A DNA stretch of 64,000 bases, taken from NCBI GenBank assembly GCA_047284725.1, contig JBJBEO010000001.1:1784203-1848202 (forward strand), read 5' to 3'. Positions 7,562-33,257 of this stretch are shown here, in pieces. The translations under genes were made by a program, and so were the position numbers. This DNA is from Synechococcus sp. (GTDB lineage: Bacteria; Cyanobacteriota; Cyanobacteriia; PCC-6307; Cyanobiaceae). The notes beneath the pieces were generated by a model that was not told the origin of the DNA, did not search any database, and saw nothing but the letters and a program-made list of their open reading frames with translations. Within the stretch, counting starts at the first letter, position 1, and every line of letters begins with the position of its first letter.

Positions 7562-7592
7562 ACCGAGCCAAGTGTCGAAACAGTCACTCGGA

Positions 7593-7997: not shown

Positions 7998-8074
7998 AGC
8001 AACAGCCGGCGCCCCCTGTCTGCAACGCTAGAGATCTCCACCAGCTCCGCAAGGCGGTTCTCCATTCAGCCCCG

Positions 8075-16122: not shown

Positions 16123-16190
16123 CTCAGTCGCTTCTCGCCTTGATCATGACGCGCCCGAACGGGCACGCAACGGGATGCATGGCACCCGGA

Positions 16191-16207
16191 ATGAGAACGA
16201 TTATCAT
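16191..16207. promoter_or_regulatory. Zur box
   Basis: A-TGAGAAC-G-ATTATCA-T, 2 mismatches to the cyanobacterial TGATAATnATTATCA palindrome, between divergent permease and znuA-like genes. Confidence 0.75.
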
Positions 16208-16238
16208 CCCTTCGGAAAACCGATGCTTCGCCCCTGAC

Positions 16239-17159
16239 TTGGCACGACCAACAACGTTCTTCCTGCCAGTGCTCACAGCGCTTGTTATCGCATCGCTCCC
16301 CCCGGCCGCAGCGGCCGCGGTGCCAACCGTGGTGGCAGGCGATGGCGTGCTCTGTGATCTCACCCGCACCCTGTCCGGCGGTGCCACAGACGTGCGCTGC
16401 ATCCTGGCTCCCGGCACCGATCCCCACCATTTCCAACTGACACCCAGGAATCGGCGCGATGTCGGCGCAGCCGACCTGGTGCTGATCAATGGCTATGGAC
16501 TCACCCCCACATTGGCGCGTCTGAGCGGATCGTTCACCCTGGTTGCCGTTGGCGAGGAGGCGGTTCCCGGCAACCCCTCCCAGGACCCCCATCTCTGGCA
16601 CAGCCCCGTCAACACAAGCGCCATGGCCGCTGTGGTGTCGCGCAGGCTGCAAGACCTCCCTGTCAGTCGTGAATCGAAAACCGGCTTGCAACGACGCCAA
16701 CAAGCCGTGACCGGCATTCTTCGTGATCTGGACCAATGGAATCGTCGACAGATCGCGACGATTCCGTCAGCCCATCGTGCCTTGGTGTCCGAACACCTTG
16801 CCTTTGGCTTTTTCGCCGACCGCTACGGCTTGAACCATGTCGCCATGATCGACGATTACGCGACAGGAGGACAACTGCGCCCCTCCAGCCTGAACCGCAT
16901 CAGTGATGCCGTGAAAGCATCCAACACAAAGGTTTTATTTGCAGAACAACGCCCTCCATCCAAAACCCTGCGACGGATCAGCAAGCGCTCTGGTAAACCC
17001 ATTGCCTCGACAATTCTTTTCGCCGATGGCACTGCACCCAACAAGAGTTTGATCGAGACAGCAACTGCAAACACCTGTAATCTCGTGAAAGCCCAGGGTG
17101 GAACCTGCGACCAGACAGGTGCGAATTCCCTTCAACAGCGCTGGGAAGCGGTGCGCTGA
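16239..17159 (+). CDS. znuA: Metal (Zn) ABC transporter substrate-binding protein, ZnuA-like
   Basis: DPHHF, DPHLWHSP, EHLAFGFFADRYGL; TTG start inferred from the signal peptide. Confidence 0.85.
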   Translation: MARPTTFFLPVLTALVIASLPPAAAAAVPTVVAGDGVLCDLTRTLSGGATDVRCILAPGTDPHHFQLTPRNRRDVGAADLVLINGYGLTPTLARLSGSFTLVAVGEEAVPGNPSQDPHLWHSPVNTSAMAAVVSRRLQDLPVSRESKTGLQRRQQAVTGILRDLDQWNRRQIATIPSAHRALVSEHLAFGFFADRYGLNHVAMIDDYATGGQLRPSSLNRISDAVKASNTKVLFAEQRPPSKTLRRISKRSGKPIASTILFADGTAPNKSLIETATANTCNLVKAQGGTCDQTGANSLQQRWEAVR

Positions 17160-17203
17160 AAAGCCGAACCTTTCTCATTGCAATTCTTCGATTTCCTCAG
17201 ACC

Positions 17204-18241
17204 ATGATCCGCTTCAATCTCTCATCGTCAGCCCTGACGTTTCTTGGACTTCTCACACCTTTAGGGCTCACTGTCGCCTATCCACTGTCCGCCGAAGCAG
17301 GTGCTGGCCACAACCACGGTGGAGGCTCCGAGGAAGAACTTGAGAGCGGCGAATTTCGTTCCATGCCGGTGATCACCCTCGAAGGCCATGGTGGTTATGA
17401 AAACAACCTCGAAGGCAAACCAGCCCACTACGCCATTGATGGGATGTTCGGCGCAGTGATGGAATGGGGGCTTCCAAATCAGGGCAGTTTCGCGATTGAG
17501 GCCGCCATCGGACCAGCCTTGGTCTGGGGTGAAGCCGAGCACTTCTATGGCCGGGTTGAACTGGAAGAAGAGGAAGGCGAGGAAGCCCATGGCGACGAGG
17601 ACCATGGTGATGAGGACCATGGCGACGAGGAGCATGGTGACGAGGATCACGCCGAACACGGCGAGGAGGGGCATGGCCACGCAGAGGGCCAGCCGTACCG
17701 ACGCATCGACATGAAGGGCATGCTTCAGGCCCGTTACCAACCCAACGATCGGCTGGCCATTTCAGCCACTTGGAAGCCTTACTTCGTCACCAAATCCCAG
17801 GGGGAAGACATTCAAGGCGTCAAGCACGAAGTGTCCGCCGACATCACCTATGCCTTCGGAGATGGAGACGTCAACTTTGCTCTGGGTGATGGCCTGGAAT
17901 CAGTGATCGATGGAGTTTTTGTGTCGGTCAGCAACCACTCGGGCTGGGAGAGTGATGGCGTTTACCTCGGCAACTACACCGACACCAGGGCAGGGTTTGG
18001 CTTCAATTACGACCAGCTCAACGTCACCCTGACCGGTGGGCCACGCTTCTATACACCCGGCTCCTATTCAGGCCTCTCTCAACGCACGGACTGGGGCGGC
18101 GAGATTGCCCTGGAATACCCCATTTCTGATTCGGTCATTGCGTTCGCCCACTGGGAAGCGGTTTACAGCACCGCCTCCGGCGAGGGTTGGGGCAAAGGAT
18201 TCCAAAACCACGTCGGCACTGGATTAACGTTCCGCTTCTAA
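17204..18241 (+). CDS. His/Asp/Glu-rich predicted outer-membrane beta-barrel protein
   Basis: Signal peptide, amphipathic beta pattern, C-terminal Phe (GLTFRF), HGDED repeats. Confidence 0.75.
   Translation: MIRFNLSSSALTFLGLLTPLGLTVAYPLSAEAGAGHNHGGGSEEELESGEFRSMPVITLEGHGGYENNLEGKPAHYAIDGMFGAVMEWGLPNQGSFAIEAAIGPALVWGEAEHFYGRVELEEEEGEEAHGDEDHGDEDHGDEEHGDEDHAEHGEEGHGHAEGQPYRRIDMKGMLQARYQPNDRLAISATWKPYFVTKSQGEDIQGVKHEVSADITYAFGDGDVNFALGDGLESVIDGVFVSVSNHSGWESDGVYLGNYTDTRAGFGFNYDQLNVTLTGGPRFYTPGSYSGLSQRTDWGGEIALEYPISDSVIAFAHWEAVYSTASGEGWGKGFQNHVGTGLTFRF
17588..17647. repeat. 15-bp in-frame tandem repeat x4 encoding HGDE[DE]
   Basis: CATGG(C/T)GA(C/T)GAGGAN units. Confidence 0.9.
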
Positions 18242-18248
18242 GTGCTTA

Positions 18249-18277
18249 AGGGTGATCACGTTGATCGTGATCACCCT
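18249..18277. terminator. Hairpin between convergent genes (likely terminator)
   Basis: Perfect 12-bp inverted repeat AGGGTGATCACG-TTGAT-CGTGATCACCCT. Confidence 0.7.
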
Positions 18278-18283
18278 CCCTTT

Positions 18284-18694
18284 TCAAGCAGAGGGTTGGC
18301 CGGCTTGGGGTCTGCAACGGCCACACAACCCGTAAAACTCCAGGGTGTGGAACAACACCTCATAGCCATCCTGCTGATCCGCAGGAATGGTGATCGAATG
18401 GAGGGGACAGGTGGCAAGCTGCTGTGTCTCACCACAGCTCACACACGTGAGGTGATGGCGGTCACGGGCCACCGGCGCGTAAAGGGCTTCCCCCGTTGGC
18501 AGCTGACGGCAACGCACCAGACCCATCTGCTGCAGGTGCCGCAGATGGCGATAAACCGTAGCGAGGCCCATCGCCTGATCGGCCTTGAGGAGGGCCCGAT
18601 GCAGCTGCTGACCACTGAGCTCGTCGTCGTTCGCTTCCAACAGAGCGATCAATCTCTGTTGCTTGTCACTGATGTCGACCTGAGAACCGGCCAT
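18284..18694 (-). CDS. zur: Zinc uptake regulator (Fur family)
   Basis: SGQQLH, MGLATVYR, LPTGEALYAPV.RDRHHLTCVSCG, FHTLEFYGLCGRC resemble marine Synechococcus Zur; context is Zn uptake genes. Confidence 0.88.
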   Translation of the reverse strand: MAGSQVDISDKQQRLIALLEANDDELSGQQLHRALLKADQAMGLATVYRHLRHLQQMGLVRCRQLPTGEALYAPVARDRHHLTCVSCGETQQLATCPLHSITIPADQQDGYEVLFHTLEFYGLCGRCRPQAGQPSA

Positions 18695-19472: not shown

Positions 19473-19631
19473 GCTGCTTTTCCTGACTGACTCTATTCAG
19501 CCAACACAGCCGCAACTCAACTGTACGCATTGATACAAAACCGACGTTCATGCGCCAAGGTCCCCAGCCGTTCAGACCCGCGATCCAGTTGGATTAACTT
19601 GACGAAATCAGAAACCGCGACAGGCATCTCG

Positions 19632-20375
19632 TTGGTTCTTCATCGCTTCAAACGCTGTCATTGCCACACCCAGCAGCGGGGGTTCAGCACCCAGCAGGTC
19701 CTCCTCATTCTGCTGGTGGTGTTTCCCCTGGGATGCATCGCCCTGGGACTGATCCTCAACGGGGTGATGCAACGCAGCAAGACGTCAGAAGCGACGGAAC
19801 CAGAACCCCCATCAACCATCGCTGCCAAACCGGAACCGATGGAAGCCGCCGGTGATCCGGATCCAAGCCAGGTTGAAACAGCCCAGCAGGACGCTCCACA
19901 GGCAGCACCAGCAGCGAGCGACACAGTGGAGCTCGGGGCCTCCGTGACGGGTGTTCCAATCCGGTTGCTGATGCAAAGCATCAACACGCGCGACAGGCAA
20001 TTCCGGGACTTTCAATATCAGCTCGGCAGCAGCACCGTTGCGGCGATGGCCAACTGCACCGATCAAAGCTGGACGAGTTACCCGGAGCGCCAGCTGAATC
20101 GGCCCCAGTCCCCCGCGACGGAGCGCATGCTCAGGCTGGTGTGCGGGACAACCAACGAGGCCGACCCGCCAGCCCCATTACCAGACCCTGCTTTTCCCGG
20201 GGTGGCGATCGTGTTCGACCCACCCAGCAATGTGCGCAGGAGCCCAGGCGGAGCCTTTCTTTGCACCGTCAACAACCCGCGCAGCATCCGCGTCGGTCAG
20301 GCCCAGGGTGAGTGGTACCCCACCTCGGCGTGTGGACCCCAGGGGTTCATCCATCGCAGCCAGGTGCGCTTCTGA
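19632..20375 (+). CDS. Membrane-anchored protein with pilin-like N-terminus and C-terminal SH3-like domain
   Basis: RGFSTQQVLLILLVVFPLG; DPPSNVRRSPGG...GEWY...GFIHRSQV; start uncertain (ORF open from 19530). Confidence 0.75.
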   Translation: MVLHRFKRCHCHTQQRGFSTQQVLLILLVVFPLGCIALGLILNGVMQRSKTSEATEPEPPSTIAAKPEPMEAAGDPDPSQVETAQQDAPQAAPAASDTVELGASVTGVPIRLLMQSINTRDRQFRDFQYQLGSSTVAAMANCTDQSWTSYPERQLNRPQSPATERMLRLVCGTTNEADPPAPLPDPAFPGVAIVFDPPSNVRRSPGGAFLCTVNNPRSIRVGQAQGEWYPTSACGPQGFIHRSQVRF

Positions 20376-20401
20376 TCAACACCTCCCCTGCAGGGCTTCC
20401 T

Positions 20402-20968
20402 ATGCCGATGCTCCCTCTCCGCCACCCCTCCACAGCAGGCTTCTCCAATCAACAGGCCCTTCTCGCCCTGCTGGTTGTCTTTCCGCTCGGAATGATGTGC
20501 ATCGGGATGGTGGTCACCCTGGCCCTGCGATCCACCTCCGCCTCCACAGCCCAGGCACCGGCGCCAGCAATCCAGACACCAGCCCCGAGTGCATCTCCAG
20601 CATCCGAGCAGCCAGAGACCGTCAGACCGGCCCCTGCCCCATCGACGCCCGTCAAACCCCTGGCGAATCCGGGATCGGCCAATCCAACTCCCAGCAGCGC
20701 CAACACCTGCTGGTTCCAGATGCAACGGGGAGGACCTCTGATCGGTGATCGTTGCAGCGTGACGCTACGGGTCAATGTCAACGGAGACCGGGTCTTTGAT
20801 GTGATTGAGCCTTCGGGCTTGAAGCGATCCGTGGTGCTGTGGGAGAACGATGACGTGGAAGTGTTCCTGAACGAACAGCGCTACACGGGAAGCTGGCTTG
20901 TGGATGATGAGGGCGATGTTCGCGTCAGCCTGGCCGGAGGCACCTTTGCATTTACGCCTCCTCGCTAG
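20402..20968 (+). CDS. Membrane-anchored protein with pilin-like N-terminus and Pro-rich linker
   Basis: AGFSNQQALLALLVVFPLG; beta-rich C-terminal domain with a Cys pair. Confidence 0.75.
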   Translation: MPMLPLRHPSTAGFSNQQALLALLVVFPLGMMCIGMVVTLALRSTSASTAQAPAPAIQTPAPSASPASEQPETVRPAPAPSTPVKPLANPGSANPTPSSANTCWFQMQRGGPLIGDRCSVTLRVNVNGDRVFDVIEPSGLKRSVVLWENDDVEVFLNEQRYTGSWLVDDEGDVRVSLAGGTFAFTPPR

Positions 20969-21002
20969 AGCGTCAGGCTCATGCCGTCTGGAGAGCGACC
21001 GT

Positions 21003-21557
21003 TCAGCAATCCTCCTCACCCTGCTGCCTGATCAGCAGGATGAATCCAGACAGAATCGACACCAGGGCCAGACACGCCACCACTGCGATCACGGGAGTCG
21101 CCGCAGGGGTTCCTGAGGCTGGAGACAACGCAGGCTCTTGCGGTGGCCGAGGCAACGACTGGTTGTCAGCCGGCAAGGGCTCAGCCATGGGCTGGCCTGG
21201 CTGCATCCGGACATAACGCACCAAGCCATGAAGCCCCACCAACACGGACTGATCAGACGACACATCCAGAATCAGTCCGGAGCCTGTTGATTGAGCCACA
21301 AAGTGAATTCTGTTCTGCTCAAGAAACTCCCAGCGTGCATCAGAGCTGACACCAAACATCGTCACGGTCGCGCGACCGTCAGGCTGAAGATAAAGACAGG
21401 ACATCTGACTCTCAGACTGATCAGATCCGAGCCCCTCCAAACAGTACTTGCCATGTAGCCGCGACCCTGGCGACGCAAAACAAGCCTGAAGCAGAACACA
21501 CCCAACGAAACAAGCCGCGACACGACTGCGCAGAGAAGACAGCCGTCGTTGGCTCAT
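21003..21557 (-). CDS. Exported protein with Pro-rich linker and C-terminal TM anchor
   Basis: N-terminal signal (possible lipobox LQAC); C-terminal hydrophobic helix. Confidence 0.6.
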   Translation of the reverse strand: MSQRRLSSLRSRVAACFVGCVLLQACFASPGSRLHGKYCLEGLGSDQSESQMSCLYLQPDGRATVTMFGVSSDARWEFLEQNRIHFVAQSTGSGLILDVSSDQSVLVGLHGLVRYVRMQPGQPMAEPLPADNQSLPRPPQEPALSPASGTPAATPVIAVVACLALVSILSGFILLIRQQGEEDC

Positions 21558-21573
21558 GATGCGGCTTGCAACA

Positions 21574-22458
21574 TCACAAGCCGGCCTGTCCATTGTCGAA
21601 GCGCTCAAAACCACAGAGACGCGCCGCCGCTTGATACTCAGGGTCGAAGCGATCCCAACGGAAACTGCGGGGATCGTAGCGACTATGGCTGCGGTCAATC
21701 GCCTGATGGGTCGTCAGGCGTGTCAGAGGAATTCCGAACTTGGCCTGCCACAGCAACACCTGGCCAGCCAGATTGCGGTATTGCGCAGAGGTGTAGCCCG
21801 AGTGGCCACTGCGATCATCCCGACCATCAACTGGCGAAACAAGACTGATATGCAAAGCGATGTTATTCACCGAGCCAACACTGGACGCTTTGGTGCGCTG
21901 GGTGACATCACCAAACGCCGACATGCCAGCACCGTAGGCGCGCTTTTCATCGGGGACGATGCGCAACCGTGCGCCATCGCGTGCAATCAACATGTGATAA
22001 CTGGCCTGATCAGCATCGTTGGGATGCGGCGTCTGAAAGAAGGCCACCGTGGCTTTCTCACTGATCACGGTTTCATGCAGCACGATCAGCAACGGCTCAG
22101 CCTGAAGAGCACGGTTCCAGGCATCGACAACTTTGCGTTCGCCGAAATTCGTGGCATCGGCCAGTTGATCCATCTCTGCTGTCAGCGCGAGCGTCTTGGC
22201 ACAGCTGGCGATCTCCTGCGCCGACGCAGGAGGCAAACCAGCATCGGCCAGTGTCATCACAGGCGGAAGGGTCAGACCCTGTTTCGGGCTTTGCCCCTTG
22301 CCCCGGACTGAGCCGTCGTCGTTGGGATTGGTATGCCCGCTGATGGAGGGATGCTGCGGATCACCCGCCCCTTGCCAGGGGAAACGAAACGGCAACGACG
22401 TGCAGCCGCTGAGCAGGATCAGAGCTGCGGCAACAGACAACGAACGAACAAGAGTCAT
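21574..22458 (-). CDS. N-acetylmuramoyl-L-alanine amidase (Amidase_2), lipoprotein
   Basis: Lipobox LSGC; IVLHET, ASYHMLI, RAYGAG, SVNN, TTH, RYDP. Confidence 0.85.
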   Translation of the reverse strand: MTLVRSLSVAAALILLSGCTSLPFRFPWQGAGDPQHPSISGHTNPNDDGSVRGKGQSPKQGLTLPPVMTLADAGLPPASAQEIASCAKTLALTAEMDQLADATNFGERKVVDAWNRALQAEPLLIVLHETVISEKATVAFFQTPHPNDADQASYHMLIARDGARLRIVPDEKRAYGAGMSAFGDVTQRTKASSVGSVNNIALHISLVSPVDGRDDRSGHSGYTSAQYRNLAGQVLLWQAKFGIPLTRLTTHQAIDRSHSRYDPRSFRWDRFDPEYQAAARLCGFERFDNGQAGL

Positions 22459-23118
22459 TTACTGCTTGCGATAGTCCCAGATTTTCCAGCGACCAGACTC
22501 TTCTTTGAGGGTGTAAATCCAGTCTTTGGTACTTGAGGACGTTTCACTGCCCTTGGGCGAGTGCAGATTGGAAACCTCGGTCACCGACACGACAATCGAA
22601 GGCATCGAAGGGGACGGCAAATAGCGGATCACCCGATTCACCTTGATAGTGGAATAGCTGTAATAGCTGTTGTTGTTCTTGAGCCACTGGATGGATCCAT
22701 CCGGCTTGGTTAAATCGGTCCATAAAGGTCCAGCCGCCACCACCTGATCAGCCAGATCGGTGTTGAAAGGCGGAGCGAAGATCTGAGATTTCACCGTCAA
22801 CCACTCCTCCACGATGGCTCTGGCTTGCTCCTGGGTGAGACCAGATGGCTGAGGAGCCGGCTGCTTCTGCGGGGGCAGCGGCTGAATCGTGGTGGATCGC
22901 TCAGAGGACTCCGGTCGCTCCACCGGCTGGGGAGCTGGAGCAGGGGCGGGGGCCGTCGCCACCGTGCTCTGACGCTGCAGCAGCACGATCACCAGCCCCA
23001 GCGCCACCAGGCCGAGGGGAAACAGCAGCAGCAGAACCAGCAGGGCTTGCTGGTTACTGAATCCTTGATCACCGCGCAGCCGATGGCGGAAGCGGCTGAT
23101 TGGCGTTGAGCGACTCAC
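22459..23118 (-). CDS. Membrane-anchored protein with pilin-like N-terminus and ARC6/IMS (DUF4101-like) domain
   Basis: QGFSNQQALLVLLLLFPLG; A..IVEEWLTVKSQIFAPPF..WLKNNNSYYSY..VTE..Y.L..GRWKIWDY. Confidence 0.75.
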   Translation of the reverse strand: MSRSTPISRFRHRLRGDQGFSNQQALLVLLLLFPLGLVALGLVIVLLQRQSTVATAPAPAPAPQPVERPESSERSTTIQPLPPQKQPAPQPSGLTQEQARAIVEEWLTVKSQIFAPPFNTDLADQVVAAGPLWTDLTKPDGSIQWLKNNNSYYSYSTIKVNRVIRYLPSPSMPSIVVSVTEVSNLHSPKGSETSSSTKDWIYTLKEESGRWKIWDYRKQ

Positions 23119-23241
23119 AGAATGACCTCCGGGAACAACGTGGTCAAAGCAGCTGCACCGTGCCTGTCGTGCCACACCCAAAGCAAGGCCATTGGACAAA
23201 CGGTCACAATGATGCACTGATCAGGATCGGAACCAGGGTGA

Positions 23242-24132
23242 TTGAAGCAGGTGCCATCAACCAGAGCCGGCGTGTCTCCTGATCCAAAGCGTCAACCCGG
23301 ACCATGGCCAGCACTGGGTTCCTGGGCTGCGATTCAGCTCCTGCATCAGGCTCCAGCCCAGGCAGCATGGGACCTGCGCCACGCAGCGGCTGTTGAAGAT
23401 CTCCTGAACGACTACATCAAGACGCTGCCTGAGGGAGCCAGCATGCCGGCGCCGAGGCTCTTCCTCTACAAAGGCACTGCGTTTTCAAGGGCCTGCCCAG
23501 GATCCGGCATCGAGGCCCCCGCCTACTGCCCTGGGGATCACACCGTTTATCTGGAAATGGGGCTGGGCGATCAAGTGGCCACCATGTACGGAGATTTCGG
23601 AGCCCTGTCGATCCTGTCGCATGAATTCGGCCACGCCTACATGAGTCAACGCCAGCTGCATCCCCCGGGCAAACAGGGAGAGCTGGCCGCTGATGGTTTC
23701 GCCGGAGGGTTCGCCCGTTATGTCGAGCAACTGGGGCTTCTGGAAGCCGGTGACATCGATGAAGCCCGCGCCACCTTTGCCGCCGTTGGCGACTATCAGG
23801 TGTATCACCATGATCACCACGGCACCCCCAACGAGCGCCGTCAGGCCTTTGAGGCCGGCTACCAGCAAGGGTTCCGTCTGCCGGGGGAGCCACCCACAGC
23901 TCAACCGCCCACAGTTCAATCACCAACCGCTCAACCACCGAGAGCACAACCCCAGCAACCCGCGCCCCAACCCGACCAACCGGCGATCGTTCCCTCTCCG
24001 ATTCCTGGTCAGGCCAACCAGGTCAGCGCCGTTGGTCCCGTCCTTGGCCTCGGCCTCGGCGTTGTTTTCATCGCCTTGATGTTGATCGCCGTTGTCACGC
24101 TGATCAACAGGGCCCGTGATGAAGAGTTTTAA
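23242..24132 (+). CDS. Neutral zinc metallopeptidase (YpfJ-like) with C-terminal TM
   Basis: AYCPGDHTVY, HEFGH, ELAADGFAG, HGT..R..AF..G. Confidence 0.85.
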   Translation: MKQVPSTRAGVSPDPKRQPGPWPALGSWAAIQLLHQAPAQAAWDLRHAAAVEDLLNDYIKTLPEGASMPAPRLFLYKGTAFSRACPGSGIEAPAYCPGDHTVYLEMGLGDQVATMYGDFGALSILSHEFGHAYMSQRQLHPPGKQGELAADGFAGGFARYVEQLGLLEAGDIDEARATFAAVGDYQVYHHDHHGTPNERRQAFEAGYQQGFRLPGEPPTAQPPTVQSPTAQPPRAQPQQPAPQPDQPAIVPSPIPGQANQVSAVGPVLGLGLGVVFIALMLIAVVTLINRARDEEF

Positions 24133-24637
24133 AACCACAGTTCCAACCCCCACAGGGTTCAGCAACCAGCACGCCCTGCTGGTGCTGTTGATTCTGTTTC
24201 CTCTGGGCTTGATGGCCATCGGCAGCCTCGCCGTTCTGTGGTTGAAACAGCCGTCCGTTGTTGCTGACACCCCTTCCAAACCAACCGCCACCGAACCCAA
24301 CCAACCTCAGGCCAGGACCAATGCCAATTCCAATTCCAACGATCACAACAAGACCACCCCAGTCCCTGATCTGATCGCGTTGCAGGAGCAACGCCTGAAT
24401 GACCTTGCCGATGCCATTTTCTGGCGGCGCCATCCATCCCTGCAAGGCGTCAAATTGAGTGGTCAAACAGGCGACTTAGCCCGTGAATGGAGCCGGATCC
24501 GCCACTGCGACGCCATCGTTGATGATCGTTTTTATCGCCTCCATCCACACATGCGCGGACGCACGATCCAGCCGAACCAGACGGAGCTGGCGGCGAGCTG
24601 GCAACGCTTGCGCGATCAAGTCGAGGGTTGCTCCTGA
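24119..24637 (+). CDS. Membrane-anchored protein with pilin-like N-terminus and duplicated helical repeat
   Basis: TGFSNQHALLVLLILFPLG; internal repeat DAIFWRRHPSLQG..LAREW / DDRFYRLHPHMRG..LAASW. Confidence 0.75.
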   Translation: MKSFKTTVPTPTGFSNQHALLVLLILFPLGLMAIGSLAVLWLKQPSVVADTPSKPTATEPNQPQARTNANSNSNDHNKTTPVPDLIALQEQRLNDLADAIFWRRHPSLQGVKLSGQTGDLAREWSRIRHCDAIVDDRFYRLHPHMRGRTIQPNQTELAASWQRLRDQVEGCS

Positions 24638-25551
24638 ACGCTCGCACGCGTCGAGCGCGGCCGCAGAACCACGACACCGATCGATGCAGGAACCGAGCGC
24701 ACATACGCAGCAAACGGATGCGAGCGGATCACCCCCTTCCCAGGCACGGCATGGATGGCTGACACGCCATCGGCATCACGCACCACAACACCCATATGCG
24801 TGACATCAAGCCCAGGAACGGACGTGGCAATCGCAAACAGATCACCATTCTGGAAGGAACGACTCGCCAGTTCCAGACCATCATTGGGGAGATAGATCTG
24901 TTCAATCGTCAGACGACGCTCCTTCTCTTGAATGCAGCGGAGCGTTGAAGGCGTCTGCAACGGGGAATAGAGAGACGGATGGTCCGACATATAGGTGAGA
25001 TTCAAGACGCGTCGCTGATGACCGGCCACCTCATCCGTGACATCCTCAACCCATCCCTGATCAGCGGCCGATGCCGCCCAGCTCTGGAAATAATGATGAC
25101 GCGAGCAGTAATCAACACGGCCCGCCTCGTATCGCATGGTTTGCGTTGTCGCCACAAACGATGGCCAATCGGATGACACAGCCAGCGCCAGAAGTTGCTC
25201 AACCAACAACATGCAATCAAAACGTGTCAGATCAACGCGCAATCGCTCTGCGCCCCCTTCATCCAGGGAAAAGGCGACATAGGGAGTGCCGAGAAACGAC
25301 TGAGCCAGGGAAGCGACGGTCTGAGCAGGCTCGAGCTCACGCATCCATCCCTTGATCTCGGAATACAACTCCTCACTGCCGGGAGCGACCTGCACCTGCG
25401 GATCCGACGCAGGACGATCCGACGCCAGGGCCGATGGCCCGATCGCACGCTGACGCTGCGGGTTGAACGGCTGATCGGCGGCAAGGCCACCTGCCGCCGA
25501 AAGAGAGACCACCAAACCCGCAAGCCCCATCCACCGGCGTGCACGCATCAC
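24616..25551 (-). CDS. AmiA-like NlpC/P60-fold amidase (DUF1460)
   Basis: FLGTPY, FDCMLLVE, RY..G.V.YCSRHHYF, GLDVTHMG, IHA. Confidence 0.87.
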   Translation of the reverse strand: MMRARRWMGLAGLVVSLSAAGGLAADQPFNPQRQRAIGPSALASDRPASDPQVQVAPGSEELYSEIKGWMRELEPAQTVASLAQSFLGTPYVAFSLDEGGAERLRVDLTRFDCMLLVEQLLALAVSSDWPSFVATTQTMRYEAGRVDYCSRHHYFQSWAASAADQGWVEDVTDEVAGHQRRVLNLTYMSDHPSLYSPLQTPSTLRCIQEKERRLTIEQIYLPNDGLELASRSFQNGDLFAIATSVPGLDVTHMGVVVRDADGVSAIHAVPGKGVIRSHPFAAYVRSVPASIGVVVLRPRSTRASVQEQPST

Positions 25552-25626: not shown

Positions 25627-26919
25627 TTGACTCCGAAATCGTTCTGCCTATCGCTGCGATGCGGACTCTCAACGACGGCCATCGCCATGGTGATCAGCGG
25701 CTGCGCCTCCGCACAACTGCCCAGTTGCGTGATCGGCCTGGAGGCACCCACCCCAGAGCAACGTCAGCGCTGGGAGGCTGCTCCTCAGGTCACCAGCCTC
25801 GACCTGGGCATTGATGGCAGCAGTTCCATGTTGGGGCTCACAGGCTCAGCCGACAGCGCACGGGCCTGGAAGGGCCTGCTCAAAGGCGTCAGCCTGGGTG
25901 CCGCGGCCAACGGGCTCAGCCTGAAGACCCAACGCATCGGCAGCGGTCGCGGCAGCACGGTCTCCAGCCCGATGCAAGCCGCCGACGCCTGTTTCTTTCA
26001 GGGGTGTGGTGCCTTTGCAGCGGTGACCTCCAGCCTTGAATCGCTCTGGAGCAGCCCAGGCCTCAGCCAGGGCAAGCCACCTCTTCGCCTCGCCATCAGC
26101 GATCTGGAGGTGAACGATGGCGACATCGCCAACCTCGTGGGAGCCATCCGACCACATGTGGAGCAGGGAGCCGTGATCGGCGTGCTTGCCGTTCGGCTGC
26201 CATTCGCAGGCAGGGTGTACAACAGCCAGGGCACCGTGATCCACGAGGGCACAGCGGAACGCCCCACCTACCTGCTGGCGACAGGGCCGCGCTCCCAGGT
26301 GCACAACCTGCTCAAAGACGTGAAAACGAAAGCAGCCCTGGCGGGGGTGCCGACAGGCTCCATGCACCTCACCCTGCTGGATGAGCAGGCCAATGCACCC
26401 ACCCTGGTGGCGAAGAGCATCGCGGGCGACAACAGCGGTTACGGCCAGCCGTTGCGTCTCGGAACAACCACCTTCAGCCCGAGTGGCAATGGAAAGTACC
26501 AATTCGCAAGGCTGTTTGAGGGAGCCAATCGTGTCGTTCTCAGCAGCGGAGTGGGCGTCAGCGCCCAAGCGCCGCTGCTGCCCGACCTCGGCCTGATCAA
26601 TGTGCTGCCGGTGGCCTTGCCTGGCACCTCAAGCCACAGCAGCGGCGTGGATGTGGATGGATTCCAGGTGAACGGCACTGACTTGAGCGTGGGCTTGGGG
26701 ATCGCCGACACCACCATCGGCGGGGCCGTGCGGGCGACGGTTGCTCGCGGCCAACTTCCGGAAAGCTGGTGGGTGCGTTGGAATCGCCTGACCCCCAAAG
26801 CAGAGGACGCACGGAATCAAACTGACGGATTATTGCTGTTGCTCACAAGTTTGAGCCAGTTGATGGTTCAAAATGGCACCACTCCAGCCGCGTCTCTCTG
26901 CCTGGCTTTCAGTCGGTAA
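25627..26919 (+). CDS. vWA-like lipoprotein
   Basis: Lipobox ISGC; LGIDGSSSM (DxSxS MIDAS-like) and downstream AISDL. Confidence 0.7.
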   Translation: MTPKSFCLSLRCGLSTTAIAMVISGCASAQLPSCVIGLEAPTPEQRQRWEAAPQVTSLDLGIDGSSSMLGLTGSADSARAWKGLLKGVSLGAAANGLSLKTQRIGSGRGSTVSSPMQAADACFFQGCGAFAAVTSSLESLWSSPGLSQGKPPLRLAISDLEVNDGDIANLVGAIRPHVEQGAVIGVLAVRLPFAGRVYNSQGTVIHEGTAERPTYLLATGPRSQVHNLLKDVKTKAALAGVPTGSMHLTLLDEQANAPTLVAKSIAGDNSGYGQPLRLGTTTFSPSGNGKYQFARLFEGANRVVLSSGVGVSAQAPLLPDLGLINVLPVALPGTSSHSSGVDVDGFQVNGTDLSVGLGIADTTIGGAVRATVARGQLPESWWVRWNRLTPKAEDARNQTDGLLLLLTSLSQLMVQNGTTPAASLCLAFSR

Positions 26920-26934: not shown

Positions 26935-27471
26935 ATGCGAATTCTGCAGTTCATCACCCTTGCCCTGTCGGTTGCTCTTGGCATGGTGTGGATTTTTATT
27001 GTTCAAAACTCGATCTTTCTGCATGTTTTGGCTGGTCCCTTGAGTGGACCTGGCATGAATGTTGTTGACTTCCTGCAGATCGGCAGCAGTCCCGCCTTCA
27101 CCGTGTTCTGGGCTGGCTGCATCTCAGCGCTGCTGATCTGGTTTGTGATCACGCTGAGCTCGCGCCCCCGCAGCTCCGCCCAGACCCGGGGCATGCAACC
27201 GATGTGGTGGCTGGCAGCGGCCCTGCTCACCCTGTTCGGCTGGCTGTGCCTGGGCTGGTTCACAGCATTCAGCTGGACCATGAGTGGTGTCAGCCCGATC
27301 GCAGGCTCTGCTCAACTCTTTTTTCCACTTCCCCCGGGTGGGTGGCTGATGCTGATGGGATTTGTGATGCTCGATGTGATCCTGCTGTTCTGGTTACCCA
27401 CCCTGGTCGCGTCGCCTCGCACCTACCGCTTCGTGGTGCCCGGAGCCGTCACCCTTCTGGGCAGTCGCTGA
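26935..27471 (+). CDS. 4-TM membrane protein
   Basis: Four hydrophobic helices; tightly linked within the operon. Confidence 0.8.
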   Translation: MRILQFITLALSVALGMVWIFIVQNSIFLHVLAGPLSGPGMNVVDFLQIGSSPAFTVFWAGCISALLIWFVITLSSRPRSSAQTRGMQPMWWLAAALLTLFGWLCLGWFTAFSWTMSGVSPIAGSAQLFFPLPPGGWLMLMGFVMLDVILLFWLPTLVASPRTYRFVVPGAVTLLGSR

Positions 27472-27472: not shown

Positions 27473-28972
27473 ATGAAACAGATTTTCGCCATCGGCGTCG
27501 GCGGCACCGGCGCTAAATGCATCGAGGCGCTGGTGCATCTCCATGCCTGCGGATTGCTCACCGATCAAGACGGCAACCCAGCCCGATTGGGGGTGTTTCT
27601 GGTGGAGCCGGATCAGCAGAGTGCTCTGCTGCTCCGTGCCCAGACAGCGATCAACCGCTACGGCTCCCTGCGCCGGGCCGTGGGACGTCAAAGCGACCGG
27701 TTTGCCCGCGCCGAACTGCGGGATTACGGCCAGTGGAGTCCACTGAGCACAGCCTCCGGTGCCATCAGCCTCGATCAGGTCTTCCCCAAGGCGGTGCTGC
27801 GCACCCAGGCGCCAGGGGTGGCGGCTTTGTTTGATTGCCTCTTCCCCCCCGAGGAGCAGAGTGCCGACCTGGAAGTGGGGTTCCGCGGCCGACCACCGAT
27901 CGGATCGGCAGTGATGAGCCGCATCAGCCTCGAGCAGGAGGCTCAGGTGGGCCAATGGCAGCAGATGCTGAGCGACATCCAGACCGCCGCCGGCAGCGGC
28001 GAAGCACCGGTGGTGCATCTCTTCGGCAGTGTGTTCGGCGGCACCGGCGCCTCCGGGGTCCCCACCCTCGGCCAGCTGCTCAAAAACTGGCTGAAGCGAC
28101 AGGGGCTCACCAGCGTCCAGGTGCAGGCGTCACTGCTGCTGCCCTACTTCGATTTCGAGGGGATGGCCGACGACGACACCGGTGTGCACGCCGAATCACG
28201 CAACTTCCAGCTCAACACGGACGCCGCCCTGCAGTACCTCCGCACCAGCGGTCGCGCCTGCTTCGATCGGGTCTATCTGGTGGGGAGCGACATCAAGGCG
28301 CGCTACGGCTTCAGCATCGGTGGCACGTCCCAATCGAATGCCGCCCACATGGTGGAACTGCTGGCGGCCCTCGGGGTGTGTCATCCCGGCACGACAAGCA
28401 ATGGCTATGCCCATGTGCTCAGCCGGACGGAGCAGCAGAGCATGGGCTGGGAAGACCTGCCCGACAACGAGATGGTGGGCGATGCCCTGGCCCGCGGCGC
28501 TCGCTTCGCCGTGGCATGGCGCAACAACATCACCCGTGAGATCAATGAGGCCCAGAAGGTGCCGATGCGCACCTTCCTCAGTGGTGCGCCATGGGCGCGG
28601 CGCTTCTTCCATCCTTCCGGGTCGGGCACCGACCGAGGCATGCGGCCTGGCATCCGTGACAAGGAACAGCTCACGGTGCAGAACGCCATTGATCAGTACT
28701 GCGACACACTGCTGCAGTGGCTCAACCAGGTTTCGAGCAACCTCGGCAGTGGATTCCGCCAGGAGCTGTTCACCGCCTCACTGCTAAGGCCCAGTGACCG
28801 CTTCGAGAACAACCTCAGCCGCGTGGTGAAAGGCAAGGCGAGGCCCCGCCGCCCCGAAGCCTCCGACACGGTGGAAGCGATCAAGGTGCGGATGGATCAG
28901 CTCAAGAGTGATGCCATCTCCCATCGCGGCATGGCCGGCCTTGCCGATTGTCTCTGGTCTCTTGTGGTCTGA
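27473..28972 (+). CDS. Tubulin/FtsZ-like GTPase (Tubulin_2-like)
   Basis: IGVGGTG, GFRGRPPIG, GSVFGGTGASG signature, LLPYF. Confidence 0.87.
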   Translation: MKQIFAIGVGGTGAKCIEALVHLHACGLLTDQDGNPARLGVFLVEPDQQSALLLRAQTAINRYGSLRRAVGRQSDRFARAELRDYGQWSPLSTASGAISLDQVFPKAVLRTQAPGVAALFDCLFPPEEQSADLEVGFRGRPPIGSAVMSRISLEQEAQVGQWQQMLSDIQTAAGSGEAPVVHLFGSVFGGTGASGVPTLGQLLKNWLKRQGLTSVQVQASLLLPYFDFEGMADDDTGVHAESRNFQLNTDAALQYLRTSGRACFDRVYLVGSDIKARYGFSIGGTSQSNAAHMVELLAALGVCHPGTTSNGYAHVLSRTEQQSMGWEDLPDNEMVGDALARGARFAVAWRNNITREINEAQKVPMRTFLSGAPWARRFFHPSGSGTDRGMRPGIRDKEQLTVQNAIDQYCDTLLQWLNQVSSNLGSGFRQELFTASLLRPSDRFENNLSRVVKGKARPRRPEASDTVEAIKVRMDQLKSDAISHRGMAGLADCLWSLVV

Positions 28973-29016
28973 ACCCACAACAGTCGTTCGATCACTCCCC
29001 AGCACCCTCTCAAGCC

Positions 29017-32000
29017 ATGACCTCCTCTCCCTCGCAGGACATCGTTCAGATTCCCTGGTTCCCGAAAACCGATCCACCCCTCGGAGGCGGAGCCCAGGCT
29101 GGGGAATGGCAGGGGCGTGACCAGCAGAGCCTCGGCACGATCGCCAAGAGCCTCGTCTACGAGGTGGCGACATCACGGGTGAATTCACTGCCATCGCCCT
29201 GGTCACGGGCACTGCAGTTCGAGCAGGCGGTGCTGAACTCGCGCTACCCCACGCGCGATTCCCTGCTGGAGGAGCTGTTTGGGGGCATGGCCTGTCTCGG
29301 CCTCTGGGAGATGTTTGGCCTGCGCCTCGATGCCCAGCGGGTCTCCCTGCTGGACCATGCCGACCTGCAGGACGATGCGGTCGGGCCGTTCTCCCGCAGC
29401 CTGGCCGCCTCGCTCCCTGATGGACGCAACGCCCTGTCACGCCAACCGGAGGGACGGAACCCCTGGGAAGTGGTGTATGTGTTCACCCTGCAGGGAAGCG
29501 TGGTGGGCTTCAGCTCCCCCAGCACGCTGTTCTGCCCGGCCGTTCACCTGCCTCAGCCGATTCAGGGGATGGGCTGGACCAACAGCGGACGCTTCACCTC
29601 CCCCGTGGATTTTCTGGGTGCTCCCCAGCGCCAGGCCCTGGGGGATTGGTTCAGCCACGTGAAAAACGGCATGCTCAATGCGAGCGATCTGCACAGTCAG
29701 ACCAGCGCTGGACAGATGGCCGAAGTGCTGGATCTGTTCATTCACCGGCTCACCGCGGGCCGGCTCGGCACGCCCACCCTGTCCGACACCGGACGGGTCG
29801 CCAATCTTCCCTCCAATCCGGTGGCCCTGTCGCTGCTGGCCAGGCCGGCCAAAGGCGGCGTCAGCGCCAGCCAGGCAACGCTGGAACTGGGCGATCGGCT
29901 CCAGGCACCGCTCGGTGACACCCCCGCCAGCCAGCCGGTGGTGCTGGTGGACCCCGACATGCCCAACAAGCTTGGGGTGAGCGCGGCCGACATCTGCCTC
30001 TACAAATCGGCGACGTTGGAGTCGATCGGCTTCGATCCAGGCCAGCTCGATCGCCAGTACGGCAAAGAGATCACGGTGCTCACCCCTGATCAGATCTTTC
30101 TGGATGAGCTCTATCTGGTCGCAGGAGAACAAGCGCTTCAGAACTCCTGGCTTCCCAGCCGGCTGGAGGGCGTGCCGCGGGTGAACGGCGAGGCTGTCAC
30201 CCCCCTGCTCCCCCTGCGTCCGGAGATCCGCCGACTGTTCAGCAGCCGTGAGCTCAGGGAGCGCTGCCAGCTGCGGGTGATGCAATCCAGCGTCAGCAAT
30301 GAGGTGGAAGTGAGGCTCAGCCTTCCCCTGCAAGGCCAGCGTGAGGGCTATTCGCTGGCTCGCTCCTACCCCCTGAAGGAGCAGAACCTGGTGGCGGAAG
30401 ACCTGCCCGTGATCACCCTCTGGCCCTACGTCAGCGATGAACGCTGGCGCCTCTATTACCTGTTCTGCGAAGACAGTCCGTCGGCGCTGACCGTGGATGG
30501 CTTCAGCGATTACGACCGCAAGCTGGGCCGAGATAACCAGCAGGTGGTGAAGTATTTCACCACCCAGCACTTCCCCGACCTGGTGCGCCTGAGCGAGCGC
30601 GGTCAGGATCGAGGCCTGCTGCCGGTGACCCCGCCGGCCTCGTGCCCGGATGTGGGCACCCAGTGGCAGGTCGGCATCGACTTCGGCACCTCCTTCACCA
30701 ACTTCTTCATCGATGAGGGGGGCGGGCCGGAGCGCCGGCACCTCGAGACACGGGTGATTTCCCTCACCCTGTCGCAGAAGGAAGAACGTCAGCGACTGCT
30801 CAACCAGTACTTCGTTCCCGAGGAAATGCTGCCCAACACCGACAGGGCCAGCAATCCCCCCACCGCCACGGCCATCAGCCTGCGCGGCTGGCAGGAAGTG
30901 CTCGGTCAGGTGCCTGAGCTCTTCCATGAGGCCCGGCTGCGGGTGCCCAGCCCCGGTGAATTCGGTGGGGCTGAATTACGCACGGGCTTCAAATGGGAGC
31001 AGATGCAGTACCAGAAACCCTTCCTTAAAGAGGTGGCGCTGCTGGTCAGTGCCAACGCCGCTGCCAACGGTGCCCAGGAACTGCAGTGGTCGGTGTCGTA
31101 TCCCAGCGCCTTCTCCCCCAATGAAGTGGCCCGCTACCGGCGGGTGTGGGTCGAGCTCTGCGATGACCTCAACCAACTCACCGGCCTGCGCCATGCCCTC
31201 AATGCCAAAGCCGGAGAGGGGGGACTGCAAACCGAGGCTGTGGCCTTCGCCAGCTACTTCGGCAACTTCCAGAACCGCCAGATGGTGCACACCTCCTGCC
31301 TCGACGTGGGTGGAGGCACCACCGACATCTCGATCTGGCAAGACAACCGACTGATCCATCAGGTGTCTGTGCCGTTTGCAGGGCGCGACATCAGTTCGCA
31401 GCTGCTGCGCCGCAAACCGTCGTTCCTCAAGTCGCTGTTTCCACCGAGCCTCACCGCCGACATCAGCGACGACGAAGCCAAAGCCCGTCAGGACCGCAAC
31501 TTCACCAGCCGCCTCGACAACATCATGCGCTACGGCTCCGATGAGCTGCTCGCCGGCCGGCTCGACATGCTGGTGAATCAGGAGTCGACCCTTCAGGAAC
31601 CGCTGCAGCAATTCCTCAGTCTGCTGTCGGTGAGTTTTGCGGGGATCTACCACTACCTGGGTCAGGTGCAGCAGGTGCTGCGCGACGAAGGCAAACTGAC
31701 CCGTCGCACGCCGACGCCGGTCTACATCGGTGGCAATGGCGGACGTTTGATCAACTGGATTGATGCCAGTTCTCGTTTCCAGAAGGGGGGCGATCCCGAC
31801 CGCCTGATGGAGCGGATGCAGATCAAGGCCTCCGGATGCGACGCCGGCAACGCCTGCACCACCCTGTCGGATGCCTACAAGGATGAAACCGCCTGCGGCC
31901 TGATCAGTTCGGGCGTGAATCTGATCGGCGACTTTGATCCCCGTGACGACGTCATGGTCTGCGGGGCCAGTCTGGTGGTGAATGACCTGCACTTCGCGTG

Positions 32001-32313
32001 CGGTGATCGCGTGCAGCTTCCCCACACGCTGTCGCGAATTGATCGCTATGAGCTGCCCGATCTCGATGCGATCCGCACCTTTGTGGAGCACTACGACGAC
32101 AGCATCGCCGAACTGCGCATTGGAAGCCTGCTGCCGATTGGGGAGCTGTGCGACCTCGACACCCTCTGGGCTGAAGTGGAAACGGAAGTGCGCTCCCTCT
32201 GCCTGGCCAAGGTGGGGCAGGACGCCAAGGACCTCGAACCCGAACCCGGATTCATCCTCGGATTGCGGGCACTCACCAACACGCTCGGCCGGCTCTGGGC
32301 CGAACGCTTCTGA
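29017..32313 (+). CDS. Large protein with C-terminal actin/Hsp70-fold ATPase domain
   Basis: VGIDFGTSFT (phosphate 1), SYPSAFS, TEAVA (connect 1), DVGGGTTDIS (phosphate 2), IGGNGGR (adenosine); N-terminal SLPSPWSRA. Confidence 0.87.
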   Translation: MTSSPSQDIVQIPWFPKTDPPLGGGAQAGEWQGRDQQSLGTIAKSLVYEVATSRVNSLPSPWSRALQFEQAVLNSRYPTRDSLLEELFGGMACLGLWEMFGLRLDAQRVSLLDHADLQDDAVGPFSRSLAASLPDGRNALSRQPEGRNPWEVVYVFTLQGSVVGFSSPSTLFCPAVHLPQPIQGMGWTNSGRFTSPVDFLGAPQRQALGDWFSHVKNGMLNASDLHSQTSAGQMAEVLDLFIHRLTAGRLGTPTLSDTGRVANLPSNPVALSLLARPAKGGVSASQATLELGDRLQAPLGDTPASQPVVLVDPDMPNKLGVSAADICLYKSATLESIGFDPGQLDRQYGKEITVLTPDQIFLDELYLVAGEQALQNSWLPSRLEGVPRVNGEAVTPLLPLRPEIRRLFSSRELRERCQLRVMQSSVSNEVEVRLSLPLQGQREGYSLARSYPLKEQNLVAEDLPVITLWPYVSDERWRLYYLFCEDSPSALTVDGFSDYDRKLGRDNQQVVKYFTTQHFPDLVRLSERGQDRGLLPVTPPASCPDVGTQWQVGIDFGTSFTNFFIDEGGGPERRHLETRVISLTLSQKEERQRLLNQYFVPEEMLPNTDRASNPPTATAISLRGWQEVLGQVPELFHEARLRVPSPGEFGGAELRTGFKWEQMQYQKPFLKEVALLVSANAAANGAQELQWSVSYPSAFSPNEVARYRRVWVELCDDLNQLTGLRHALNAKAGEGGLQTEAVAFASYFGNFQNRQMVHTSCLDVGGGTTDISIWQDNRLIHQVSVPFAGRDISSQLLRRKPSFLKSLFPPSLTADISDDEAKARQDRNFTSRLDNIMRYGSDELLAGRLDMLVNQESTLQEPLQQFLSLLSVSFAGIYHYLGQVQQVLRDEGKLTRRTPTPVYIGGNGGRLINWIDASSRFQKGGDPDRLMERMQIKASGCDAGNACTTLSDAYKDETACGLISSGVNLIGDFDPRDDVMVCGASLVVNDLHFACGDRVQLPHTLSRIDRYELPDLDAIRTFVEHYDDSIAELRIGSLLPIGELCDLDTLWAEVETEVRSLCLAKVGQDAKDLEPEPGFILGLRALTNTLGRLWAERF

Positions 32314-32321: not shown

Positions 32322-33257
32322 ATGATCACTCCATCACGCAAACTGACGCTGTCGGCACTGGCGCTCACCGGCCTGATTGGTGCGTTGTCGTGCTCCGCCG
32401 TCGTTCATGCCGAACCGCCGACGGCCACAGGAACACCAAACCAGGAGACAGCAGCCCCCGCAGAAGTCTCGCCCCAGCAACCGAGCCAACAAGAAGGCCA
32501 GCAACATCAGTCTCCACGCATGGACGCACAACCGACACCTCGGTCGGTTCCATTTGTCGGAACAGGTGGGATCCTTCTCCTCGCTGGAGGAGGGTTGGTG
32601 GTGGCCCTCGGCAGCCTGGCCACGGGGATCACCGCCCACCTGCAGCTGCGGCGCAGCCATCAGCGCCTGCGCCAGCAATCCGACACGCTGCAGACCCGGC
32701 TCAGCGAACTGGAGCTGCAAGTGGAGCAAGACCGGATTGCCCAGCTGGCGCGACGGACACCCCGCGCCGCCACACCCATGGCTCCACGCCCGGCACCTTT
32801 TGCCGCGAAACCGGTGCCTGCCGCCGCGCCACCACCACCGGCGCCACCGGCACCACAACCCGCGGTTCCAGCACCGGCTCCAGTGCCGGTCAGCAAGGCC
32901 GGCTTGATCGCAGCCCTGAACAGCGGCGATCGCCAGCCCCTGCGTGAGGCCGCCACCGCCGAACTGAACATCACCAGCGACTCGGAAAACGCCATCGCCA
33001 CCGGCAGAGCCGTGTCGACCGAACTGGAGGCGGTGGCCGGGGGGGGAAGCTACTGGTTGATTGCCATCGACCAGCACCATTGGCTGTTTCCAACGGATCG
33101 CACCCTGAAGGGGTTTGCCGCTGCGCAGCCCTCGAAAGGCCTGTTTCACTACGAGAAGCAGACCATCGCCCAACCGCAGCTGCTGGAGCCTGCACAGCTC
33201 AACCCCAATGGTGACCGCTGGATCGTGACCTCCATGGGCCGCATCGGCACACCCTGA
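32322..33257 (+). CDS. Membrane protein: signal, TM, coiled coil, Pro-rich linker, beta domain
   Basis: Architecture read from sequence; last gene of the operon. Confidence 0.8.
   Translation: MITPSRKLTLSALALTGLIGALSCSAVVHAEPPTATGTPNQETAAPAEVSPQQPSQQEGQQHQSPRMDAQPTPRSVPFVGTGGILLLAGGGLVVALGSLATGITAHLQLRRSHQRLRQQSDTLQTRLSELELQVEQDRIAQLARRTPRAATPMAPRPAPFAAKPVPAAAPPPPAPPAPQPAVPAPAPVPVSKAGLIAALNSGDRQPLREAATAELNITSDSENAIATGRAVSTELEAVAGGGSYWLIAIDQHHWLFPTDRTLKGFAAAQPSKGLFHYEKQTIAQPQLLEPAQLNPNGDRWIVTSMGRIGTP

Follow-up and report, generated by a model that had tools for sequence, protein, structure and literature searches.

A conserved prepilin-like N-terminal tag on four proteins with unrelated C-terminal domains beside a tubulin-like/actin-like operon in Synechococcus

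Introduction

Why should neighbouring genes encode proteins that share a distinctive N-terminal segment and little else? The question is raised by a 64,000-nucleotide stretch of DNA from a small, marine-type cyanobacterium, Synechococcus sp. (GenBank assembly GCA_047284725.1, contig JBJBEO010000001.1, positions 1,784,203 to 1,848,202; hereafter the window, to which all coordinates refer unless another locus is named). Four open reading frames (ORFs) in this window, designated p1 to p4, carry an N-terminal G-F-S/T-N-Q-Q ... F-P-x-G segment, here termed the tag, which is followed by a Pro-rich linker and by a C-terminal domain that differs from one protein to the next. The first-pass annotation of the window had described the tag as prepilin-like and had proposed that it delivers interchangeable periplasmic domains to one machine, perhaps the adjacent tubulin-like/actin-like system or a pilus. 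The analysis reported here supports a discrete and apparently undescribed module that travels with the tubulin-like/actin-like operon, and speaks against the prepilin interpretation. The reading that we favour, although we would put it at somewhat less than an even chance, is that p1 to p4 are bitopic inner-membrane proteins in which a lineage-specific N-in/C-out signal-anchor also serves to dock its carriers onto a common partner.

Results

Occurrence and anatomy of the tag

A six-frame regular-expression scan and a degenerate DNA pattern each identify exactly four copies of the tag in the window, with Gly codons at 19680 (+), 20438 (+), 23064 (-) and 24155 (+), and none of 100 dinucleotide-preserving shuffles yields a match to the degenerate pattern. 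A hidden Markov model (HMM) built from 68 unique tags and run over all six-frame fragments of the window recovers the same four tags and no fifth, so that the three approaches agree on the four proteins originally proposed to share this N-terminus.

Gly-1 is present in 68/68 unique tags and Phe+1 in 64/68. Positions +2 to +5 are the polar residues Ser/Thr, Asn, Gln and Gln, and a hydrophobic run extends from about +6 to +28. Position +5 is Gln in 64/68 tags and Glu in none; in p4 it is His. The alignments thus confirm the polar character of +3 and +4 and the presence of Gln or His in place of Glu+5 that had been noted in the first-pass annotation. The F-P-L-G motif at +14 to +17, described there as invariant, is indeed so among the four window tags, whereas in the wider family its third residue is Leu, Ile or Val. 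At +1 to +8, +10, +11, +14, +15, +17, +18 and +22 the column entropy is about 0.1-0.7 bits, as against about 1.8-2.6 bits at +23 to +28, where conservation is weak; the strongest conservation therefore extends from Gly-1 to +22. Most family members display Q/K-R/Q-P directly after the hydrophobic stretch, and no conserved cleavage motif was seen there among the family tags. The leaders of p1, p2, p3 and p4 contain 4, 1, 5 and 2 Lys and Arg residues against 0, 0, 1 and 0 Asp and Glu residues, respectively, so that the basic leader previously ascribed to all four is net-positive throughout, but weakly so in p2. Proline accounts for 12-23% of the 60 residues C-terminal to the hydrophobic stretch in the four window proteins, which bears out the Pro-rich linker.

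The motif is translated and is under purifying selection, since it is invariant as protein while its codons vary. In 20 tag genes (the four of the window and 16 from other genomes), Gly is found in 20/20 and is specified by four different codons, Phe is found in 20/20, Asn in 18/20 with two codons and Gln in 19/20 at both positions, while F14, P15, G17 and G22 are each present in 20/20; the five codons before the motif display 63 synonymous versus 858 non-synonymous pairwise differences. The Gly is preceded by 6-27 residues in 75/77 profile matches, and the concern that the true starts might lie downstream of the G-F pair is contradicted by both observations, the start of every homologue lying 6-27 codons upstream of a motif that is conserved despite varying codons.

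The 49-53-residue N-terminal segments of the four proteins match no Pfam or NCBIfam family even at E<=10, a null result to be read with the reservation that HMMER filters may drop very weak matches. An Atlas look-up with the tag alone returned no usable match, and the motif as a text string was not found in the literature search. The tag itself appears to be undescribed, for no family model covers it and the proteins that carry it are named solely by their C-terminal domain, if at all. It belongs to a familiar kind, being a variant of N-terminal anchor and assembly signals that are already known.

The four tag proteins

The p1 gene (19599..20375, +) carries its tag at 19680-19781 (Gly to +33) and may start at TTG 19599 or at TTG 19632, the former being likelier because the gene calls of the relatives P0005 and P0007 begin at that position. 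The p2 gene (20402..20968, +; tag 20438-20539) starts at ATG 20402, 26 nt past the p1 stop codon. On the opposite strand, p3 (22459..23118, -; tag 22963-23064) starts at GTG 23118 with GGAGG a few bases upstream, and p4 (24119..24637, +; tag 24155-24256) starts at ATG 24119, where it overlaps the end of a Zn-peptidase gene by 14 nt.

The C-terminal parts of p1 to p4 have no mutual similarity in BLASTP beyond low-complexity linker matches, in keeping with the four unrelated C-terminal domains that had been proposed. In the AlphaFold2 models of p2 and p4, a single helix at residues 16-42/43, itself with a predicted local distance difference test (pLDDT) score of 50-60, is followed by 40-55 residues with pLDDT <50 and then by a separate confident domain. 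Three of the domain types named in the first-pass annotation stand. In p3, a protein of 219 amino acids with 18 residues ahead of the tag motif, residues 132-246 of the long ORF match the ARC6-like IMS domain (PF13355; E=1.7e-18, 67.7 bits, cut-off 22.8), and no further Pfam domain is present. The C-terminus of p2 is modelled as an eight-strand beta domain (pLDDT ~90) in which Cys103 and Cys118 are invariant, and p4 is modelled as four helices (pLDDT >90), corresponding to a two-helix repeat with internal duplication at E=2e-7 and with invariant Cys130 and Cys171. The fourth type, an SH3-like fold for the C-terminus of p1, is a lead only: p1, in which a middle domain and a Cys pair are conserved, has no Pfam match, and for its C-terminus the Atlas look-up gives SH3b clusters at 0.89 and 0.88, both below 0.9. 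Searches of PDB sequences with the family profiles of p1, p2 and p4 returned nothing significant (best E=0.83, TatA, for p1), a match of the p2 profile to capsid proteins at E=0.028 falling over the p2 linker and likewise not being significant. Foldseek comparison with the PDB gave weak small-beta-barrel matches for the p2 model (best E=0.026) and nothing for the p4 model (best E=1.4).

Spread and modularity of the tag

A word-indexed profile search, in which 8000 candidates were scored, returned 46 proteins at E<=0.01, 37 of them with a precomputed PF13355 domain and nine without any domain. An exhaustive profile search of 1,835,955,588 cluster representatives yielded 31 at E<=0.001; on inspection by eye, 29 of the 31 are real and all of these have the tag at the very N-terminus, whereas P0072 and P0077 are spurious. 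Among the full-length tag proteins at least six C-terminal types were distinguished by eye: the four of the window, a fifth with a conserved domain of ~110 residues (P0051, P0067, P0069 and P0070) and a sixth represented by the single protein P0059.

The converse search, with the IMS domain alone, gave 85 new proteins, of which 71 have the tag; the remaining 14 are either shortened gene calls or have one of three other N-terminal architectures, namely an acidic region of ~80 residues with a different transmembrane segment, a domain of ~180 residues, or a lipoprotein signal with a trypsin-like domain. In P0101-P0106, P0150, P0151, P0162 and P0123, IMS domains that are 69-86% identical to that of p3 lie behind such other N-termini, which points to domain shuffling around the IMS domain. 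Since the tag is found on at least six C-terminal types and the IMS domain also occurs behind other N-termini, both halves are, judging from these architectures, shuffled in nature. This agrees with the proposal of a discrete, undescribed module joined to interchangeable periplasm-type domains. The named sources of the tag and IMS proteins are all Synechococcus-type picocyanobacteria.

Linkage to a tubulin-like/actin-like operon

The degenerate DNA pattern matches 17 stretches in the genome collection. A Thorarchaeota contig accounts for one of these matches and a Clostridium contig for two; all three look like chance, with a tag HMM E of 0.015 or worse. The rest lie in seven public assemblies, including a contig labelled Salipiger, and comprise 16 tag genes by HMM. 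As assessed by tblastn with the window proteins, ten of the 16 are within the fetched +/-10 kb of an operon that encodes, as in the window, a lipoprotein-like protein, a protein with four transmembrane segments (4-TM protein), a tubulin-like protein and an actin-like protein. Another five are on two short contigs that end before the expected place of the operon but keep other neighbours from the window, and one is unlinked; on the whole, the proposed association with the adjacent operon is upheld. On a complete 2.63-Mb chromosome and on a 2.58-Mb contig, 3/3 pattern matches each fall inside this one cluster. One p1-type tag was detected by the HMM but not by the DNA pattern.

Gene order is also conserved on a finer scale. 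The p3 gene lies directly upstream of an Amidase_2 gene in 7/7 genomes with a visible p3 (the window and six assemblies), and p1 preceding p2 and a Zn-peptidase gene overlapping the start of p4 are further conserved pairs. In two genomes, a tag gene of the fifth type, of which the window has none, is found on the far side of the operon (L003, 9956-10531; L015, 8316-8891), just downstream of the genes for the actin-like protein and for a 311-residue protein, so that tag genes may lie on either side of the operon.

Two of the fetched loci deserve separate mention. The contig labelled as a Salipiger metagenome-assembled genome (L011) has genes that are 57-78% identical to those of the window and picocyanobacterial, in the same order as in the window (amidase, p2, p1, FUR and a 345-residue protein), and is probably mis-binned. 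In L014, a p2-type beta domain is represented at 7837-8058 by its C-terminal half alone, in an ORF of 73 residues, and an unrelated ORF (7359-7943) overlaps the expected place of the missing part of p2, including the tag; the 7837-8058 segment is likely to be a gene remnant.

Neighbouring cell-wall enzymes and the operon proteins

Several neighbours of the tag genes in the window encode probable cell-wall enzymes. An Amidase_2-type N-acetylmuramoyl-L-alanine amidase with a lipoprotein-like N-terminus (21574..22458, -) abuts the p3 stop codon. A putative neutral Zn metallopeptidase (YpfJ-like; 23242..24132, +), which has a Pro-rich linker and a hydrophobic anchor at its C-terminus, precedes p4, and an AmiA-like amidase-like protein with a signal-peptide-like N-terminus (24616..25551, -) follows it. 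Between p2 and the Amidase_2 gene there is also a putative gene, a 231-residue ORF (21003-21698, -) that has a hydrophobic segment in its C-terminal part, a lipoprotein-like start at an internal position and no tblastn match in any fetched locus.

The first gene of the operon (25627..26919, +) encodes a lipoprotein-like protein of 430 residues with an invariant D-x-S-x-S sequence resembling a metal ion-dependent adhesion site. D63, S65 and S67 are invariant in 6/6 orthologues, and the protein, which has no Pfam vWA match at E<=0.1 and no PDB sequence match, may contain a vWA domain. It is followed by the 4-TM protein of 178 residues (26935..27471, +), in which four hydrophobic segments were counted by eye and which is 64-71% identical across loci, and by the tubulin-like protein (27473..28972, +), which is of the Tubulin_2 (FtsZl1) type and scores 31.3 bits for PF13809 (cut-off 27); PF13809 was found in all but two of its 120 listed homologues. 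The actin-like protein (28948..32313, +) has 1121 residues and a weak match to FtsA/actin-like ATPases over residues 784-818. Downstream of the operon, the conserved 311-residue protein (32322..33257, +) has a signal-like N-terminus and an internal hydrophobic segment. A defence island is judged unlikely, no PADLOC model having matched (0 families for 12 proteins of the cluster).

Operons combining FtsZl1 and a vWA protein have been predicted to be membrane-remodelling machines, and a vertically inherited cyanobacterial clade of FtsZl1 was noted in the same work, as far as excerpts of it tell (Makarova and Koonin, 2010; PMC2875224). From its gene content, the window operon would fit these predicted systems: as in the excerpts, a Tubulin_2/FtsZl1 gene lies beside a gene for a secreted or membrane protein whose D-x-S-x-S is intact, together with several membrane proteins. 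It differs in features on which those excerpts of PMC2875224 are silent, namely the N-terminal tag common to several neighbours, the adjacent amidase genes and the giant actin-like partner. The literature search retrieved no function assigned to FtsZl1 operons since the 2010 prediction.

Discussion

A signal-anchor that may double as a docking module

Because the leaders are net-positive, the hydrophobic run is of ~23 residues, the Pro-rich tether is disordered and the C-terminal domains carry Cys pairs, an N-in/C-out signal-anchor topology is the expected one. The short, variable leader would stay in the cytoplasm, the near-invariant G-F-S/T-N-Q-Q would sit at the cytoplasmic face of the membrane, the hydrophobic residues, with the invariant F14, P15, G17 and G22, would span it, and the flexible tether would hold a small, often disulfide-bearing domain in the periplasm. 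Since conservation runs from Gly-1 to +22 and is weak beyond, the conserved part would lie at the cytoplasmic face and in the inner leaflet. The polar N3, Q4 and Q5 and the helix-breaking P15, G17 and G22 are kept across paralogues that otherwise share nothing. As the tag is stricter than a mere anchor needs to be, above all in its cytoplasm-proximal half, we infer, as we do for the topology and for the identity of the partner, that it docks all of its carriers onto one shared partner. The clustering with cell-wall enzymes and with a tubulin-like/actin-like system hints that the tag gathers its carriers at one machine. The most likely partner would be a product of the neighbouring operon, be it the lipoprotein, the 4-TM protein, the FtsZl1 tubulin-like protein or the giant actin-like protein, and the paired enzymes (the Amidase_2 protein after p3, the Zn peptidase before p4 and the AmiA-like protein) might thereby be placed where this cytoskeleton-like system acts.

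Arrangements of this kind are known. In PilN with PilM, and in FtsN with FtsA, a short conserved cytoplasmic peptide and one transmembrane helix couple an actin-like protein to a periplasmic domain. The tag would work in a like manner without belonging to those families: the cytoplasmic peptide, the single transmembrane helix, the flexible linker and the periplasmic domain have their counterparts in its carriers, and a gene for an actin-like ATPase adjoins the tag cluster, but the tag has no sequence relation to either protein, and in the present case a single N-terminal module is combined with periplasmic domains of several types. The likeness of p3 to ARC6, PARC6 and ZipN (PF13355) is of another sort. 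Its IMS domain follows a transmembrane helix, and NCBI names its relatives 'ARC6/PARC6 family protein', yet in ARC6 and ZipN the transmembrane helix is preceded by a large N-terminal part in the cytoplasm, whereas p3, with its 219 residues, is without the ARC6 cytoplasmic part. The tag, moreover, lies outside the definition of that family and is also present on unrelated domains. A literature search for DUF4101 and cyanobacteria gave nothing relevant by title or abstract.

A number of observations weigh against a docking module tied to this operon. The tubulin-like protein has 478 clusters at E<=1e-20, far above the number of tag genes seen, and some lineages are therefore likely to have the operon but lack the tag. 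Conversely, no gene of the operon lies within 10 kb of one tag gene (L012), and the genome scan relied on an exact degenerate pattern, by which variant tags elsewhere would have been missed. In the window, a gene on the opposite strand separates p4 from the operon, which makes the tag genes neighbours of the operon and not members of it. The periodicity of conservation peaks at 100 degrees, as a helix would have it, but 341/5000 shuffles reach the same value, and a conserved packing face on the tag helix is therefore not established. Furthermore, an invariant Gly-Phe at the cytoplasmic face is equally expected of a peptidase site. A complex prediction for p3 tag residues 1-62 (34-row alignment) with the 4-TM protein (six rows) scored 0.01 against a mark of 0.32 and speaks neither for nor against binding.

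Alternative explanations

The possibility of a peptidase site at Gly-Phe leads to the reading of the tag as a non-canonical class III signal peptide that is cut after the Gly, the Phe-starting helices then co-assembling like pilins or the archaeal bindosome and displaying their domains on tethers, which we consider rather improbable. Minor-pilin clusters consist of several adjacent genes with a shared N-terminus and unrelated C-termini, a pattern that the tag genes reproduce; a hydrophilic leader of similar length, an invariant Gly, a Phe in the great majority of tags, a long hydrophobic helix and the expected N-in topology are further traits in common with pilins, pseudopilins and bindosome proteins, and the cytoplasm-proximal half of the tag is its most conserved part. 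On the other hand, prepilin N-termini are covered by the curated models N_methyl (Pfam) and TIGR02532 (NCBIfam), and neither these nor any other model of the two collections matches the tag. Class III signals have a tract of about 21 predominantly hydrophobic residues that sets in right after the Gly; in the tag, Phe+1 is followed by the polar +2 to +5 before the hydrophobic run begins at about +6. The modelled helix ends at residue 42-43 and gives way to a disordered Pro-rich tether, whereas the alpha-1 helix of pilins runs for ~50 residues into a globular head, and a Pfam scan of 78 window ORFs revealed no prepilin peptidase, traffic ATPase or platform protein. Together with the absence of Glu5, these features tell against the prepilin interpretation of the first-pass annotation. 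According to excerpts of PMC4471445, class III leaders have 6-26 residues (6-27 precede the Gly of the tag), the Gly is critical for processing, Glu5 is dispensable for it but mutants in Glu5 do not homopolymerise, and the bindosome provides a precedent for class III signals on non-pilin binding proteins. Given this precedent and the dispensability of Glu5, cleavage at Gly|Phe can still be envisaged, whereas the Gln that almost always occupies +5 argues against pilin-like polymerisation. A bolder variant, for which we see little likelihood, would make the tag a new class-III-like assembly signal, whose Gln-bearing helices co-polymerise in the membrane, with or without processing at Gly|Phe, into a short fibre or raft templated by the FtsZl1 and actin-like proteins, a bacterial 'bindosome' that positions peptidoglycan amidases; if true, it would provide the first function for an FtsZl1 system.

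Another account, unlikely though it seems to us, is that the tag is a plain inherited anchor, multiplied by serial duplication with replacement of the C-terminal part and conserved for insertion and topology with no shared partner. The clustering of the tag genes and their co-orientation in pairs resemble tandem duplicates, and by eye the tags of one C-terminal type are more alike across genomes than they are to those of other types, as would fit old, vertically inherited duplications. Anchors that serve insertion alone, however, usually keep hydrophobicity and not identity, while N3, Q4, Q5, P15, G17 and G22 are near-invariant across paralogues with unrelated linkers and domains. The periplasm-proximal half of the helix, in contrast, varies freely, and the IMS domain tolerates quite different anchors. 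There is a slim chance that the tag is instead a compartment or site signal, read by general machinery and not by the operon, that directs proteins to the plasma membrane and periplasm as opposed to the thylakoids, or to the division site. Cyanobacteria have two membrane systems between which proteins need to be sorted, and the cargo is periplasm-like throughout (Cys pairs, IMS domain) and has cell-wall enzymes as neighbours. The other envelope proteins of the cluster, however, use ordinary signal or lipoprotein-like N-termini, and a general signal should be widespread, whereas just 31 of 1.84 billion clusters contain the tag, and within complete replicons it is restricted to a single locus. 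A Sec signal peptide cut by signal peptidase I, which would release soluble periplasmic proteins, is very improbable and was set aside: small residues (Ala, Ser, Thr) do follow the hydrophobic stretch in p2 and p3, but at ~23 residues this stretch has the length of a transmembrane segment and exceeds typical signal-peptide cores, and it is followed in most members by the Q/K-R/Q-P sequence and not by a conserved cleavage motif.

Significance

A portable tag that marks periplasmic proteins travelling with an FtsZl1 operon offers an experimental handle on a system whose function is so far a prediction, and the link suggests that this FtsZl1-type system acts on the cell wall. Recognition of the tag could also improve annotation, since its carriers are at present named by their C-terminal domain alone or not at all. 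As a more general point, a prepilin-like N-terminus is insufficient by itself to call a protein a pilin.

Other features of the window

Two paralogues that share a cytoplasmic N-terminal peptide of a second kind are encoded at 10473-11093 (-) and 60157-60738 (+). Both have a RodZ_C domain (Pfam E=5.8e-13 and 1.4e-10, respectively) and their own N-terminal motif, K-P-G-E-I-D-R-L-L, followed by a basic stretch and a hydrophobic segment.

Upstream of the tag genes, a metal-uptake block at 15160-18694 comprises genes for a permease, ZnuA, a FUR-family regulator and the 345-residue protein and is syntenic with the tag genes in L011; the 345-residue protein contains a repeat rich in His, Asp and Glu and weakly matches a cyanophage outer-membrane beta-barrel domain. 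A photoprotection cluster at 4992-7095 contains the genes for an orange carotenoid protein, a fatty-acid-desaturase-family protein and a fluorescence recovery protein in a row. A CsgG-family gene, resembling curli secretion channels, is located at 44195-44995 (+). The region 48000-56000 has a GC content of 0.40-0.48, compared with ~0.60 elsewhere in the window, and may be an acquired island; it contains three cyclic di-GMP genes, encoding GGDEF (49582-51387), GGDEF-EAL (51543-53240) and PilJ-GGDEF (55020-56282) proteins.

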